Source: Octopus vulgaris
Lineage: Eukaryota
Assembly (NCBI GenBank): GCA_951406725.2
Contig: OX597832.1
Coordinates: 53,010,001 to 53,074,000, forward strand
DNA length: 64,000 nt
Direction: 5' to 3'
The translations under genes and the position numbers were made by a program. Positions within the stretch are counted from its first letter, which is position 1. The number at the start of each line of letters is the position of its first letter. Below are positions 1,007 to 42,589 of the stretch, piece by piece. The notes under the pieces were generated by a model, which did not search any database, was not told the DNA's origin, and saw only the letters and a list, made by a program, of their open reading frames with translations.

Positions 1007-1089
1007 CTTTCGACATATGTTTCGAAGACAACATTGGTTTTATTCCAAAGGAATAAACGGTGTAAAATGCAATCTTCTCATCAGGAAAG
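1007..1089 (-). ncRNA. Type I hammerhead ribozyme with canonical core, in the terminal repeat of a Penelope-like element
   Basis: Minus strand: CUUUC-CUGAUGA-GAAGA[long loop]UCUUC-GAAA-CAUAUG-UC^GAAAG; stems I, II and III all pair; GUC cleavage triplet. Confidence 0.85.
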
Positions 1090-1361
1090 AAAGAGAGCCT
1101 ATCTCAACAACAAGACATTATAACAATTATGATGACTGCCTAAATGATAAACATAACGTTATTAATTATTTTAAAAGATCGTTAGTAGATTTGACGTCAA
1201 AGGCAGATACTAGGAAGAGAAGGGTTAAAGAAATAATAAGTAGAGAACTAATAAAGAGGGATACGTTGATTGAAGAAATGTTCAAAGGCTTAGAAGTAGA
1301 GTTCTCTATTGAAGTAAAGTGCAAGTTAAACTAACTGTTCAAACTATAAAGACTGGTGAAA

Positions 1362-2200
1362 TCACTTATATGAGTTGAAGGTATGTTTCTGCCAGTGTTT
1401 ACATTTATAAGATCGCTCTATAAGTGTGTTAACAAGGTGATTCTTAGAGAAGAGAATATAGAAGAGTTCAGAGTTGCAAATGTTACAAAATCCCTTGCCC
1501 TTATTGTAAGGAAAAGATATGGACACGATGAACCAATCTCACTTAAAATCTTTATTGTTGTCTTTAAGATGCCAAACCAATTTACTTAGCCCTGTGCTAT
1601 GGCGTTTTCTGCTATCCCTAAATGATGAATAATGATTTGAAATTCTCTTAGATAACTAGGAAGAGGATGTGCCTATGTAGAAGTAGACATCGGTACTGCA
1701 AGAAATTTTACATTGGTATATAGAATTCTTGATCTTAGAATTATTAGACATAAATTTAATTCTGTTGGGGTTGTCCTCAGAGATCAAAACCATGTTTTTA
1801 TTACTATCATTATTATTATTAATACTGTTATTATTATTATTATTATTATTATTATTATTATTTTTTTTTTTATTATTATTATTATTATCATGTGAGGGGT
1901 TGGAATTAACAAGATTAATGTTGGAACTCCCAGAAAATGAACTTTTATTTAGCAGATTGGTATTGTGAGAAGATATAATTTGTGAAAGATTCTTTGTGTT
2001 GGAGAAGGCAACTCTAACTATATGAGAGTTAATAATTGAATAATATCTAGAATTTTTTGGAAAGTTCTTACCAACCACTTCATGGAATTGCAAAGGAAGA
2101 TTCGATTTAATTTGTTTTCCAAATGGAATTACAAACCATATAGTTTTCCTAGTAACATTCAAAATGTAAGTGGTATTATCTTTAAAGGAAGGTGAAAACC
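1362..2200 (-). mobile_element. Decayed Penelope-like retroelement: linker plus GIY-YIG endonuclease remnant
   Basis: IWFVIPFGKQIKSN...NFPKNSRYYSIINSHIVRVAFSNTKNLSQIISSHN linker, then IYQCKI...YIGTS*LSKRISNHYSSF...GLSKLVWHLKD...CNICNSE...CKH; two in-frame stops and an (AAT)n insertion. Confidence 0.8.
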
Positions 2201-2272
2201 TCTAGAGTGAAAATTTGAGCTTAAATAACGCTTGCCTCCCTTATATCTACATATACACACGTAGATATATAA

Positions 2273-2410
2273 AGGCAGTGGCTGTGTGGTAAGTAGATTG
2301 GTTCCGGGTTCAGTCCCACTGTGTGGCACCTTGGGAAAATGTCTTTTACTATAGCCTCGGGCTGACCTTGTGAGTGGATTTGGTAGATGGAAACTGAAAG
2401 AAGCCCGTCG
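2273..2410 (+). mobile_element. 5' part of octopus-type tRNA-derived SINE (family A)
   Basis: GTGGCTGTGTGGTAAGTAG...GGTTCAGTCCC...GGAAACTGAAAGAAGCCCGTCG head shared with many copies in the window. Confidence 0.75.
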
Positions 2411-2774
2411 TATATATGTATGTATGTATATATATATATATATATATATATATATGCACCAGGTTCCAGTCTTATGGCAATGTTTCTACAGCTGGATGCC
2501 CTTCCTAACGCCAACCACTCCGTGAGTGTAGTGGGTGCTTTTTACGTGTCACCTGCACAGGTGCCAGGCAAGGCTGGCAACGGCCATGGTCAGATTGGTG
2601 TATTTTACGTGCCACCGGCACGGAAGCCAATCGAGGCGGCGCTATATATATATATATATGTGTGTGTGTGTGTGTGTGTGTGTATATGTTTGTCCTCCCA
2701 ACATCGCTTGACAATGTCAGGGAGGAACACTGGCAAATATATAATATGACAGATATATGTACGTGTGTGTGTAT

Positions 2775-2996
2775 TATACAAGGTGGGGCTGAAAAGTTAC
2801 TGGCTTTAGGGGCATTGCAAAAGGCCTGGTTGGAGGTTCAACCTTCTGAGTTCTTTTATAGGGCTTAGAAAAACTGAAGGACCGCTGCAATAAGTGTGTG
2901 AATCTGAGAGGGAAACGTTGAATAAAATCATAATTAACTGATCCTCCTGTATTTTCTTTTATCCAAAGCCAGGAACTTTCCAGCACCCCGTCGTAT
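2775..2996. mobile_element. Tc1/mariner-type MITE
   Basis: Inverted ends TATACAAGGTGGGGCTGAAAAGTTACTGGC / GCCAGGAACTTTCCAGCACCCCGTCGTATA, bounded by TA. Confidence 0.55.
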
Positions 2997-3410
2997 ATGG
3001 CTCAGAAACCTGGACGTTATCAAGGAAGCTTGAGAGGCAGTTGGATGAAACCTACACTCGCCTCCTTATGAGAGCTCAAAATCTCTCGTGGAAGTGTCAT
3101 CCAAACAAAATGCAAATATATGGGAAACTACCACCTGTGTCATCTCTTGTGAAAGGTAGGAGAGTCCAGTTTGCTGGACATTGTTGTAGAGCTGAAAACG
3201 AGACAATTTCTACTCTTCTCCTCCGGAAGCCATCTACTCGCAATACCAGAGGGCGCACACTCTCCTACCCTGATGTAATCTCCAGGGATACAGGCATCCA
3301 GCAACAGGACCTCCGTAATGCCATGATGGACCGTGAAGTCTGGCGTAGCATGGTAAATTCCATTGTCTCGACCATGGTCGAACAATGATGATGATGATGA
3401 TGATGATGAT
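2994..3410 (+). mobile_element. RTE-clade LINE 3' fragment
   Basis: YGSETWTL...YTRLLMRAQNLSWK...RRVQFAGHCCRA...AMMDREVWR, ending in a (GAT)n tail; near-identical to the 15530 and 48950 copies. Confidence 0.85.
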
Positions 3411-3775
3411 GTGTGTATGTGTGTAGTGAGTTGAATTGTTCGTGTAACCATGATGTTCTGATGAGCTAGCTTTCTTTATTTGTATTGATTTGTGAAAATA
3501 CAACAGTGTTGTATAAAGGCATAGCATCCATATTAATGCACACATTTAAGTATATTTCCTTCCACACTGAAATTATTACTAAATGAAGAAGGTTCTGAAA
3601 CAGCCATGATCCTAAATTAAACAAATATGTATTCACCTCTCATACCTCCTAATCTTATGGTTTATATATGTAAAGAAACCCATCATATATGTACATAATA
3701 CACATACACACACATGCATTTGGCGATTTTTTTTTTCCCTCTGTCTTCCCTTCTCTGGATCTTTCCTTCTCCTAT

Positions 3776-40584: not shown

Positions 40585-40677
40585 CTGTTACTCGGAGTTT
40601 CACGTTCCCGTTCGTCGGACAGTTTTTTTTTTGACAAAACTATCCGACGAACAGGAACGTGAAACTCCGAGTAACAG
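40585..40677. ncRNA. Inverted pair of hammerhead motifs (40585-40622 minus, intact; 40640-40677 plus, two substitutions) in foldback 40552-40710
   Basis: Minus: CUGU-CCGACGA-ACG-GGAA-CGU-GAAA-CUCCGAG-UA^ACAG. Confidence 0.72.
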
Positions 40678-41015
40678 CTTTTGTTGAATTTCTGCTGCTT
40701 TTAAATAAAGCATATTACTCTGCCTCTGGTATTTGAGTACTCTTTTTTCCACCTTATTTCACATTTATGAGTTTACTCCAGTATATATATATATATATGA
40801 GGGAGAGAGAGAGAGAGAGAGAGAGAGACAATCAGTTCTAGTACTTTTCTGATAATTCTAAAGGATGAAGGGTAAAGTTGACCTCAATATGATTTACTGC
40901 CATTAAATGCGACACTAAAAAATTGGTAAAAAAAAAAAAACTATTAAATGTGATACAACATTAATAACATGCAACTTTTGCTTTGCTTTCTTTTTTTGTT
41001 TTTTTTTTTGTTCAG

Positions 41016-41119
41016 GAGGCCCTCCACCATCCGGAGCCTATCCTTACAGTGGACCATATTACCCACCCCAGCCATACCCACCACCAGCTCAGAGACCACC
41101 ACCAACCATTGTTGTAGAA
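41016..41119 (+). CDS. Pro/Tyr-rich, His-rich small protein, exon 3
   Basis: Poly-T tract + ttcag acceptor, GTAAGT donor; 104 nt, phase 1-0; GGPPPSGAYPYSGPYYPPQPYPPPAQRPPPTIVVE; GC-rich island in AT-rich surroundings. Confidence 0.85.
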
Positions 41120-41509
41120 GTAAGTGTATTTGACAAATTTTTACTTCAGACATTTCTTACGAGTTTTAACATGTAATAGGAATTAGGATAGAGATAACTT
41201 TATATACATATGTATATATACTGTGTGTGTATATATATATATACAATACACATAAAGGGTGAAATATAATTAATTTAATAAAATTAATAAATTTCACCTA
41301 GTAGTTTTTTCGGTATGGAAATGACCATATTTGGTAAGGATTATATTAATTATAATAAAGGGTGAGCAACTTGTTGCAATTAACCCTTTATTATAATAAA
41401 TATATATATATATATATATAGGGAGAATTCACAAAAAAACAAAAGACGAAGGCATGTGGTGTAGACAACAAACAGATGTATTAGTATAATGCTCAGGAAG
41501 TGAAAAAGT

Positions 41510-41545
41510 CTTTAACGTTTCGAGCCTATGCTCTTCTACAGAAAG
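41510..41545 (-). ncRNA. Minimal hammerhead-like motif with CUGUAGA core variant
   Basis: CUUU-CUGUAGA-A-GAGC-AUAG-GCUC-GAAA-CG-UU^AAAG; the conserved A6 is replaced by U. Confidence 0.5.
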
Positions 41546-42111
41546 GGACACAGAAAGAAACAAGGAGAGAAAATAAAGAATGTGTAGTGGTTAGCAATCT
41601 ATCATGGCAAATCAAGCCTTTCATGATATCCTTAAAGCCAGGAGCTTTTCAGCACCCCGTCATGTATATATATATCATCATCATTTAACGTCCGCTTTCC
41701 ATGCTGGCATGGGTTGGACGATTTGACTGAGGACTGGCGTCCAATCTTGATCTGGCAGAGTTTCTACAGCTGGATGCCCTCCCTAAGAGTGTAGTGGGTG
41801 CTTTTACATGCCATATATATATATAATAACTTTGTTTTATATATATATATATATATATATATATATATATATATATATATATATATATATATATATATAT
41901 ATATATATATATATATATATATATATGTATAATGGAGAAGTTATACAAAATGTATAAGTGGATGATGAGTAAAGCACCATCACGGTTTCGATTACCTGTT
42001 ATTATCCGTAGATTGCAGGAACTTCATAGTGGCGGATGAGGTAACAGTATTATTTTTTCCATCTATTTTATGAATACTATATATATATATATATATTTTA
42101 TTTTATAGAAG

Positions 42112-42219
42112 GAGCTTCTACAGGACTAGAACTGTTTCATTCAAATGAAATCATCAGGAAGCTCCTGAGCTTCCTGATGATTTCATTTGAATGAAACAGT
42201 TCTAGTCCTGTAGAAGCTC
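42112..42219. ncRNA. Perfect inverted pair of type I hammerheads (42112-42164 minus, 42167-42219 plus)
   Basis: GAGCUUC-CUGAUGA-UUUCAUUUGAAU-GAA-ACAG-UUCUAGUC-CUGU-A^GAAGCUC; 7-bp stem I, 4-bp stem III, weak stem II. Confidence 0.78.
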
Positions 42220-42589
42220 CTTCTATAACATAAATTAATTTACTCTGCTATGTATTGAGTACCTTATTTACTGTGGTTAACCCCGACTCAACCCGGGACC
42301 TATATATATATATATACATGGTATATACACACACAAACATATATATATATATATATTGTCTATGAAAAACATCCATCCATAAGAAGTACACTCTAAGATA
42401 TAGAGCAGTATATATTAAAAATGGGGTCAGGCTGGTTTATGAGATTACCTTAGGTTTCCTGTCCGTAAAGGATTTAACTTTATGGTGTTAAAACCTTTAT
42501 GGACAGGAAACCTAAGGCAACCACCTAAACCGCCCTTCCCCATTTTTAATATATATAAATGTGTGTGTGTGTGTGTGTGTGTGTGTTTA

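Follow-up and report, generated by a model that had tools for sequence, protein, structure and literature searches.

Minimal hammerhead ribozymes (min-HHRs) were described in the pseudo-LTRs of metazoan Penelope-like elements by Cervera and de la Pena in 2014 (PMC4209133), with an extra base between positions 9 and 10.1 and a palindromic 15.1-16.1 segment as their hallmarks. They were reported mostly as single motifs from many families per genome, together with opposite-strand pairs about 100-700 bp apart, and about 2,000-9,000 motifs were counted per genome with a narrower descriptor than the one used here. No cleavage was observed for min-HHRs tested on their own. The text consulted makes no mention of octopus.

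The head-to-head arrangement was recognized as the most frequent one among Penelope elements by Arkhipova in 2013 (PMC3846280), with palindromes at the junctions, and pLTRs can be mobilised in trans according to the same work. The canonical insertion unit of EN+ Penelope-like elements contains an inverted 5'-truncated copy and an optional 30-40-bp tail (PMC3846280; PMC8557442; PMC11167929). One-sided tails at Penelope-like insertions were documented by Craig in 2021 (PMC8557442) and were attributed to two reverse transcriptase (RT) start sites and the nicking of both strands by Frangieh in 2024 (PMC11167929), where the hammerhead of an anole element needed protein for cleavage. Retrozymes are characterized by tandem arrays, canonical hammerheads and abundant circular RNA (PMC7229834; bioRxiv 10.64898/2026.07.22.740005), and the dispersal of their monomers in vertebrates was reported in the latter study.

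Hammerhead motifs in the window

The window was the whole stretch of 64,000 nucleotides from Octopus vulgaris contig OX597832.1 (positions 53,010,001 to 53,074,000). Hammerhead-shaped motifs on 13 arms (10 loci) had been listed in a preliminary description, and all of them were found where they had been placed. By using a strict type I descriptor (core CYGANGA, stems I and II of at least 3 pairs each, stem III of at least 1 pair and an optional extra base after A9), six of the 13 arms (1007, 22488, 22544, 29503, 31254 and 40585) were flawless, while 100 local dinucleotide shuffles gave a mean of 0.08 and a maximum of 1 match by chance, and the reversed window gave 0 matches. With one defect allowed, 12 matches were obtained in the window, all within the 13 listed arms and 0 elsewhere, versus a mean of 2.2 and a maximum of 6 in 30 shuffles; at a score of at least 8, there were 9 matches versus 0.3 in the shuffles. 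The comparison with shuffled sequence, proposed earlier as a check, placed the motif frequency far above chance with both descriptors. The sole listed arm missed by the one-defect descriptor was 40640(+), with mismatches in stems I and II.

Decay was visible as defects already present in seven of the 13 arms. The core put forward in the preliminary description was intact in 11 arms and was not matched by 5503 (A9 to C) and 41510 (A6 to U); the stem III pair was lost in the 3776 motif, U.U occupied 10.1-11.1 in the 42112/42167 motifs, and stem II of the 37504 motif had just 2 contiguous pairs. As read from the folds and the sequence, the extra base between positions 9 and 10.1 was present in seven of the 13 arms and absent from the 31-, 40- and 42-kb families, and the G10.1-C11.1 pair was present in eight. 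The 15.1-16.1 segment was a perfect palindrome in six arms, an imperfect one in five (predicted self-duplex of -7.8 to -13.9 kcal/mol) and neither in two. The predicted probability of the 15.1-16.1 pair was at most 0.10 in 11 of the 13 lone motifs, which were predicted to fold poorly. No hammerhead family of Rfam reached its gathering score in the window, where only a tRNA passed, and none was among the best 150 of 302 matches at E<=10. Repeats within the window were compared by self-blastn. The presence of several independent families, as suggested beforehand, was supported for hammerheads of the minimal Penelope type.

Penelope-like remnant and single copies

The degraded 3' portion of a Penelope-like ORF was located at 1368..2201 (minus strand), containing the RT thumb, an Asn-rich linker (encoded at the AAT run 1798-1888) and a GIY-YIG endonuclease with CxxC and CxH; it carries two in-frame stops and is 5'-truncated near 2237. 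It was aligned to the RT+EN protein P0002 with 27% identity over 256 columns (pairwise E 2e-21), and 2936 relatives were retrieved at E<=0.001, the nearest named ones being from Octopus sinensis and Argonauta. No name was given by Pfam to its thumb or endonuclease part. The RT core of the remnant was lost by truncation, and a (Y/F)xDD motif was present in 20 of 20 relatives of at least 480 aa. A CxC-x2-8-C linker pattern was found in 114 of 151 relatives of the remnant, and the Zn-finger-like cysteine motif of the RT-EN linker was absent from P0001 and the octopus relatives P0003, P0011 and P0153.

A type I hammerhead (1007..1089, minus strand) with an intact core, a long stem-loop II and a palindromic stem III is located 276 nt beyond where the ORF ends, within the 3' untranslated part of the remnant. 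It is the only one of the 10 loci where a hammerhead follows a Penelope ORF; no ORF lies beside the other nine, and no other Penelope ORF remnant was found outside 1347-2237 in the window (tblastn with 151 relatives; HMM). The remnant region 307-1789 gave no blastn match to any other hammerhead locus, and the remnant, which has no sequence in common with the other loci, was rejected as the source of other families. A Penelope-like element had previously been supposed as the likely source; the window holds a remnant of such an element, which carries the 1007 motif, and a role of this remnant as the source of the other motifs was not supported.

The 1007 hammerhead is situated, unmasked and in sense, within intron 2 of an enpp4-like gene (497..10125, minus strand; coding exons 10125-9268, 4891-4712 and 727-497), the first exon of which showed 100% identity to the O. 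sinensis protein P0161 and a match to Pfam Phosphodiest. Antisense in the same intron is a single tail copy (3738..3902, plus strand; motif 3776-3810 with the broken stem III) ending at (TA)n. Its family is common to the single tail copy at 29403..29575 (minus strand; 91% over 201 nt), which has a flawless motif (29503-29537), (TA)n on both sides and the same 3' end; 38 nt upstream of stem I are shared by the two, to which a fixed start could apply. A more distant member is the single copy at 41421..41545 (minus strand; motif 41510-41545), also ending at (TA)n. The other single copies on the minus strand are at 31107..31311 (motif 31254-31311, imperfect-palindrome stem III), where (TA)n was reached 153 nt past the predicted cut, and at 37446..37581 (motif 37504-37581, long loop II, stem III identical to that of 1007), where it was reached after 63 nt. 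When all loci were considered together, 8 of 10 had (TA)4+ no more than 165 nt past the predicted cut (P about 4e-5) and 6 of 10 had it no more than 115 nt past (P about 5e-4), against a background of 0.15 per locus and 0.28 for a two-armed locus, with cut-offs set after seeing the data and two of the ten loci belonging to one family. A target-site duplication, which is optional in Penelope-like insertions, would be hidden within the (TA)n.

Foldbacks, masking and RNA

The three foldbacks named in the preliminary description were confirmed, with 89-96% identity over 144-169 nt and the head-to-head orientation. The one at 22396..23144 (motifs 22488-22522(-) and 22544-22580(+), 21 nt apart) has arms of ~135 nt and a (TA)n run ~65 nt past the arm end at 22488, and its right arm is interrupted by a MITE-like insertion (22613..23077; 465 bp, 30-bp perfect terminal inverted repeats, 8-bp target duplication) with more copies near 13797-14228 and 20617-20851. 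The foldback at 40551..40782 (motifs 40585-40622(-) and 40640-40677(+), 17 nt apart) belongs to a high-copy family, and its right arm is ~70 nt longer as a one-sided tail. In the foldback at 42097..42300 (motifs 42112-42164(-) and 42167-42219(+), spacer 2 nt), the arms are joined at the stem I 5' edge, and the right-arm tail of ~65 nt resembles that of the 40.6-kb family; both of these foldbacks are flanked by two (TA)n runs. A fourth foldback, missed previously, was located at 5201..5668 in intron 1 of the enpp4-like gene, with arms 5201-5342 and 5527-5668 (98%) and the motif 5506-5545(+); its inverted arm was cut inside the ribozyme (loop II) and is without the catalytic core. The orientation was head-to-head in four of four foldbacks and a clear one-sided tail was present in two. 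The earlier statement that the antisense arm is always made first is true of the orientation, but it amounts to the head-to-head inversion published earlier as the most common layout of Penelope elements; the order on either strand follows from the geometry of such a hairpin alone.

In the three named foldbacks, each of the six arms starts beside the stem I of the partner, at 2-21 nt (spacers of 21, 17 and 2 nt), and several single copies can extend no further than ~60-160 nt upstream of the motif, where other repeats flank them. The arm starts are tighter than random truncation alone suggests and in this respect speak against truncated insertion. They would fit short non-autonomous Penelope derivatives, the RNA of which would start just upstream of the hammerhead and be copied whole in trans by Penelope protein (as is possible for pLTRs; PMC3846280), with copies and both hairpin arms beginning at the ribozyme 5' edge. 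Such an origin is nevertheless unlikely, given the fourth foldback cut inside loop II, the 1007 copy extending >1.1 kb upstream, the RNA level given below and the variable junctions of other families. Compact foldbacks of the same type were found at 29 of 118 metagenome loci (26 distinct, 22 unrelated families), the remaining 89 having been set aside for no hammerhead fold or arms <45 nt; some of these 89 were real foldbacks cut inside stem I, for which the recorded arm lengths are unreliable. In one metagenome family (8 loci), the core-to-core gap ranged from 12 to 39 nt, so junctions differ between copies, and several were joined at AGCT or GTAC with one arm longer. For the 29 foldbacks, the gaps were spread over the whole 10-40 nt searched (6, 2, 2, 9, 6 and 4 per 5-nt bin, respectively). 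Penelope protein was matched at 0 of the 118 metagenome loci, the octopus family pattern had 0 matches in the metagenome contigs, and the first 20 matches listed for blastn of the window against the metagenome loci were all at simple-repeat or SINE positions.

The free energy predicted for the full hairpin was -102 to -132 kcal/mol versus -3 to -16 kcal/mol for the lone motif, and a continuous transcript would be predicted to bury the ribozyme in the hairpin. In the preliminary description, the foldback was proposed as a possible mask: the antisense arm might silence an active ribozyme so that intronic copies survive, and ADAR editing could unmask or disable it. That masking is the purpose of the foldback was not supported. 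The difference of about 100 kcal/mol in favour of the hairpin agrees with such selected self-masking, but burial follows from the foldback itself and does not speak for a purpose. As to tolerance in introns, three of the ten loci are intronic, but the three foldbacks named earlier are not among them, and no demonstrated intron surrounds any of those foldbacks; in the ORFs scanned from 10.2 to 58 kb (148 ORFs, i.e. 147 of 160 filtered ORFs of at least 48 aa and one added, with short or non-coding exons outside reach), 0 Pfam exons were found save a LINE-type DUF6451 fragment. The intact 1007 motif stands unmasked in sense in intron 2, the sense arm of the intron-1 foldback has no core, and unmasked copies outnumber masked ones. 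The geometry is the default one of Penelope and is repeated in the 22 unrelated metagenome families, and neither lone min-HHRs (PMC4209133) nor the anole hammerhead without protein (PMC11167929) supported cleavage. Selected self-masking is accordingly considered very improbable.

RNA reads of the 40.6-kb family were seen in both mate directions, as self-masking would allow. The ratio of this family to the neighbouring SINE-like repeat was 12-16 in RNA versus 13-17 in DNA, showing no RNA enrichment. No read-end pile-up was found on the family in two RNA runs, from fragmented libraries in which such ends seldom show, and no RNA joints were found among the matches listed for a library type ill-suited to circles. 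The ratio of A>G plus T>C to C>T plus G>A was 42:79 and 50:72 in RNA versus 16:60 in DNA contigs (P 0.054 and 0.005, respectively), over 541 nt including the SINE-like repeat and with RNA from other individuals; the RNA excess, which would favour editing, was gone when the same A>G plus T>C sites were compared with transversions (P 0.67 and 0.28). A>G at 40653 was rejected as RNA editing, being an allele of the other arm, and so was T>C at 40586, which was also present at 11% of run X8 DNA depth and leaned to the unexpected strand. No clear editing was seen in the family. Among the motif variants listed, changes were at N7, at the stem III centre, or kept or restored pairs, and two of the listed variable sites were CpGs. 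A steep depth drop at the motif 5' edge was not accepted as evidence that truncation is favoured at this point, since the copy in the window itself stops at that edge.

Tandem arrays (period >30, 132 TRF entries) overlapped 0 of the 10 hammerhead loci, and the loci are therefore not regarded as retrozymes. Dispersed retrozyme monomers are known from vertebrates (bioRxiv 10.64898/2026.07.22.740005) and the foldbacks resemble inverted-repeat elements, but an origin as non-LTR retrozyme monomers, or as palindromic DNA elements of the MITE type containing the motif by chance, is hardly credible here: the stems are minimal instead of the canonical 6+4 bp, the arms differ in where they end and face outwards into (TA)n, and RNA enrichment and listed RNA joints are both lacking. 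With no tandem array at any locus and with junctions varying between copies in comparable families, the former assignment to non-autonomous elements or retrozymes was not upheld.

Probable insertion by-products and known systems

The ten loci are most likely dead-on-arrival 3' ends of several autonomous Penelope-like families, with the hammerhead just upstream of the terminus and the hairpins as an insertion by-product. In favour are the motif frequency above chance, the min-HHR hallmarks, the ORF remnant ahead of the 1007 motif, the (TA)n association, the one-sided tails, the head-to-head orientation, the compact foldbacks of the metagenome families, the defects and variants of the motifs and the poor predicted folding of lone ones. 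Points against this explanation include, besides the tight arm starts, the nine of ten loci without an adjoining ORF, for which the Penelope origin is inferred, the metagenome loci without a Penelope protein match and the remnant without the linker cysteine motif of its relatives. In the likely mechanism, the GIY-YIG endonuclease would nick AT-rich DNA, here (TA)n, and reverse transcription would begin at either of two fixed positions close to the RNA 3' end and mostly halt after 100-250 nt. One product would leave a single tail copy. Where both target strands serve as primers and the two products become joined by truncated 5' ends, often via a short self-complementary word, a head-to-head hairpin with a one-sided tail would result. 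The ribozyme fold would be kept by selection in master elements, probably acting there as a dimer or with help from the protein of the element, and the scattered copies are likely silent and decaying. A bolder reading, in which ribozyme-bounded hairpins are the preferred product (RT ending at the hammerhead 5' edge), ~10^5 latent ribozymes exist per genome and ADAR-loosened duplexes (70-140 bp) let motifs dimerise and cut host RNA, is quite unlikely; an editing switch would matter for cephalopod RNA biology if true, and it found no support here over passive decay.

Under the insertion by-product explanation, self-antisense hammerhead hairpins would be a generic footprint of Penelope insertion, and the compact foldbacks, in which both 3' ends are fixed while the junction varies, would be clean natural records of a still unsettled step of Penelope integration. 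The octopus families would be additions to the class that Cervera and de la Pena described in 2014.

Non-LTR retrozymes are likewise non-coding, Penelope-related and of the type I hammerhead, whereas tandem arrays or canonical hammerheads were not seen at the octopus loci, and the RNA of the one family covered, that at 40.6 kb, gave no sign of abundant circles among the matches listed. EN+ Penelope-like elements share with them the head-to-head orientation, the one-sided tail, the AT-rich or (TA)n target, the hammerhead ~20-150 nt from the 3' end, the C-terminal GIY-YIG and the Asn-rich insert between RT and EN; in contrast, both octopus arms are only 70-140 nt long with tails of ~65-70 nt, and the octopus ORF is without the linker CxC..C motif of Neptune/Nematis-type relatives. 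Penelope min-HHRs differ in that octopus pairs are 2-21 nt apart versus about 100-700 bp, that some octopus families have a longer stem III or A-U / U.U at 10.1-11.1, and in the local density of 10 loci in 64 kb, which, if typical, would put octopus far above the published per-genome counts, as judged from one selected window. They agree with the octopus motifs in the type I fold, the short stem I, the extra base before stem II, the palindromic or near-absent stem III, the many divergent families per genome and the occurrence mostly as single copies, with opposite-strand pairs and few motifs beside a Penelope ORF.

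Hammerhead motifs and their gene setting

A descriptor for type I hammerheads was run on both strands of the window. In its strict form it gave 6 matches, every one within the 13 arms (ten loci) of the preliminary description; 100 block-wise dinucleotide shuffles averaged 0.08 matches (maximum 1), and the reversed window had none. With one defect allowed, 12 matches were obtained, all within the 13 arms and none elsewhere in the window, far above the shuffles (mean 2.2 and maximum 6 in 30 shuffles), and the list of motifs is therefore real and complete at this stringency. The observation is thus confirmed in part: the positions first described are right, but motif quality is mixed. 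Core changes were found in arms 5503 and 41510, a stem II defect in 37504 and both 42-kb arms, the loss of stem III in 3776 and two defects in 40640. Of the 13 arms, 6 have a perfectly palindromic 15.1-16.1 segment (hammerhead numbering) and 5 an imperfectly palindromic one. None of the 13 arms was called as a hammerhead in an Rfam search of the window. An octopus genome of about 2.7 Gb underlies the speculative figure of the order of 10^5 latent ribozymes.

An enpp4-like gene on the minus strand has its coding exons at 10125-9268, 4891-4712 and 727-497, the first with 100% identity to an Octopus sinensis protein. By these exon positions, 5503 lies in intron 1, and 1007 (sense) and 3776 (antisense) lie in intron 2. 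No Pfam exon was found around the remaining 7 loci, including the three named foldbacks, among 148 ORFs scanned; within this coverage, the proposed tolerance of copies in introns applies to 5503, 3776 and 1007, none of them a named foldback. Near 60.8 kb lies the end of an importin-alpha-like gene.

On the sense strand, four motifs are immediately preceded by pyrimidine-rich tracts resembling a 3' splice site (3690-3776, 29537-29575, 41545-41590 and 1089-1100). Helix I is reported as the intron end in Drosophila Penelope (PMC4209133).

The Penelope remnant and other repeats

A remnant at 2201-1368 (minus strand), interrupted by two stops, can be read as the thumb of a reverse transcriptase (RT) followed by an Asn-rich linker and then a GIY-YIG endonuclease, and is alignable to a jellyfish RT and endonuclease protein. 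It has 2936 relatives at E<=0.001, and the RT motif (Y/F)xDD was present in 20 of the 20 retrieved relatives of >=480 aa. The linker cysteine motif, present in most relatives, is absent from the remnant. The closest named relatives are mis-annotated octopod proteins. The 1007 motif starts 276 nt behind the end of the remnant ORF, in agreement with the suggestion of a Penelope-like element as likely source; however, the remnant DNA has no similarity to the other nine loci beyond 12 nt of stem III matched in 37504, and no other Penelope ORF remnant was found in the window. The remnant illustrates the kind of source that is likely for the hammerhead loci, not the source itself.

Penelope remnants of this sort also stand behind several O. 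sinensis gene models that bear the names of low-complexity proteins. An Asn/Ser-rich stretch of variable length replaces the RT-endonuclease linker cysteine motif in this octopus Penelope lineage (window 1656-2201, minus strand; octopus proteins P0003, P0011 and P0153), and Asn-rich inserts are reported in rotifer Penelopes (PMC3846280).

Among the other repeats, a MITE-like family (22613-23077, 13797-14228 and 20617-20851) has terminal inverted repeats of 30 bp, duplicates 8 bp of its target and carries a short (CCCTAA)n run, and further telomere-like hexamer runs lie at 11423-11509, 14105-14124 and 20704-20758. LINE 3' fragments, which by their motifs we take to be RTE-like and CR1/L2-like, were located at 2942-3420, 15514-15857, 49200-49513 and 26021-26494, the first three being mutually 93-95% alike. 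Tandem arrays of SINE pieces lie at 17103-17503 and 27347-27893 (periods 135 and 184, respectively). The tRNA-like sequence at 47911-47983 (plus strand) scores 63 bits, which exceeds the Rfam gathering threshold, and may represent either a gene for tRNA-Val or a SINE head.

Anatomy and formation of the foldbacks

Loci 3776 and 29503 belong to a single family (91%) with an identical 3' end, to which 41510 is weakly similar; the tails of the 40.6- and 42.2-kb families are weakly similar to each other. Cuts are predicted after 1012, 22491, 22576, 29507, 31259, 40589, 42119 and 42212. With distance cut-offs picked after seeing the data, a (TA)4+ run follows the predicted cut within 165 nt in 8 of the 10 loci (background 0.15; P about 4e-5) and within 115 nt in 6 (P about 5e-4). 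The 40.6- and 42.2-kb foldbacks are flanked on both sides by (TA)n, and one arm is 65-70 nt longer. The arms of the 22-kb foldback are about 135 nt, one of them interrupted afterwards by an insertion that duplicated 8 bp of its target, a length typical of hAT elements.

These loci are most likely explained by (TA)n nicking, fixed-site priming, early termination and head-to-head joining of 5'-truncated products. The element would nick a (TA)n target, priming would use either of two fixed sites close to the 3' end of the element RNA, reverse transcription would terminate early and, where both strands were primed, two 5'-truncated products would be joined head-to-head. An anole element in vitro was reported to nick and extend both strands with two start sites, its hammerhead being protein-assisted and dispensable for insertion (PMC11167929); this type of mechanism is carried over to the octopus by analogy and may hold there. 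Self-priming on an antisense template is described by Arkhipova et al. as giving the same structure (PMC3846280).

Stem I adjoins the start of all six arms in the three named foldbacks (spacers 21, 17 and 2 nt), which keeps alive the rival that a short RNA was copied instead of a longer element being truncated. This seems improbable, as a strict boundary is opposed both by the flat spread of gaps in the metagenome families and by the fourth foldback (5201-5668), whose inverted arm ends inside loop II.

Metagenome contigs were scanned for two head-to-head cores with a gap of 10-40 nt, and at least 118 loci of this spacing were found. Among the 118 matches listed, one or both arms took a hammerhead fold in 33, of which 29 had arms >=45 nt (28 with the extra base, 22 palindromic and 24 with G-C); the latter are 26 distinct loci, after removal of three duplicates, in 22 families. 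One arm is often 25-30 nt longer at its end. Flanks and junctions vary within families, several joins being at AGCT or GTAC, and the hairpins would therefore be made afresh at each insertion. Compact hairpins are not special to cephalopods. No Penelope protein match was found at the 118 loci listed; motif and architecture point to a putative Penelope origin. One family (L002, L007, L013, L033, L036, L096, L099 and L105) is joined at self-complementary 4-mers, ends at either of two alternative 3' positions, and offers ready-made material on how Penelope copies are joined.

Foldback 194-401 (arms 93 nt, 98%) has at its centre a sequence resembling a hammerhead's 3' half (GAAA, ATAT, UU), and may be another Penelope foldback, one that was cut close to the cleavage site. 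Foldback 30917-31014, between (TA)n runs, has a centre with a 13-nt match to the 40.6-kb family stem III and is possibly a copy truncated inside the ribozyme. Two more short palindromic elements without a hammerhead core lie at 42409-42555 and 41342-41404.

Masking, transcripts and comparison with known systems

The ribozyme was said always to sit in the arm made second; this is true, but follows from head-to-head geometry on either strand. It was further proposed that the antisense arm silences the ribozyme so that intronic copies survive. The predicted hairpin would indeed bury the motif; however, lone motifs are themselves predicted to fold poorly (probability of the 15.1-16.1 pair <=0.10 in 11 of 13 arms; 0.44 in the 42-kb arms), lone minimal hammerheads are reported to have failed to cleave (PMC4209133), and intron 2 tolerates an intact unmasked motif in sense (1007).

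The 40.6-kb family was present to some degree in 20 of 24 runs among those listed, under five organism codes. Two RNA runs, each covered to about 6%, were mapped onto 40250-40790 at 86% likeness and yielded 10,339 and 8,669 aligned reads, respectively. Across the family, read depth ranged from 14 to 234 in each direction and was equal in the two, as in the neighbouring SINE-like repeat, and no read-end pile-up was seen over the family in the two runs. The SINE peak exceeded that of the family 15.6- and 12.3-fold in RNA versus 16.5- and 13.1-fold in DNA contigs, which fits passive read-through; depth in contigs measures abundance poorly, and the RNA may come from an organism other than the species of the window. 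As for the A-to-G mismatches suggested as a check on the foldback RNA, the A>G/T>C site excess in RNA stands against C>T/G>A but vanishes against transversions. Variants listed within the motif lie at N7 or at the unpaired stem III centre, where three letters are in use, or else keep or restore pairs. For these variants, the pattern agrees with fold-preserving selection in master elements.

In a literature search covering few subscription papers, an octopus account of hammerheads was sought, and among the matches listed only Craig 2021 and a paper on the giant squid genome were of relevance; no match joined hammerhead ribozyme, ADAR and Penelope. The giant squid paper counts 235 Rfam hammerhead-1 loci; the O. 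vulgaris repeat annotation gives 31 recently active Penelope-like families without mention of ribozymes. The families of the window may already be catalogued in supplements, Repbase or Dfam.

The retrozyme part of the first interpretation was not upheld: none of the ten loci overlaps a tandem array, and retrozyme identity is ruled out on this criterion. Its Penelope part was supported, since by sequence features the octopus loci appear to group with the minimal type I hammerheads of Penelope-like elements, directly for one of the ten and by inference for nine. The octopus loci differ from retrozymes in having no tandem units, and would work like the Penelope hammerheads.
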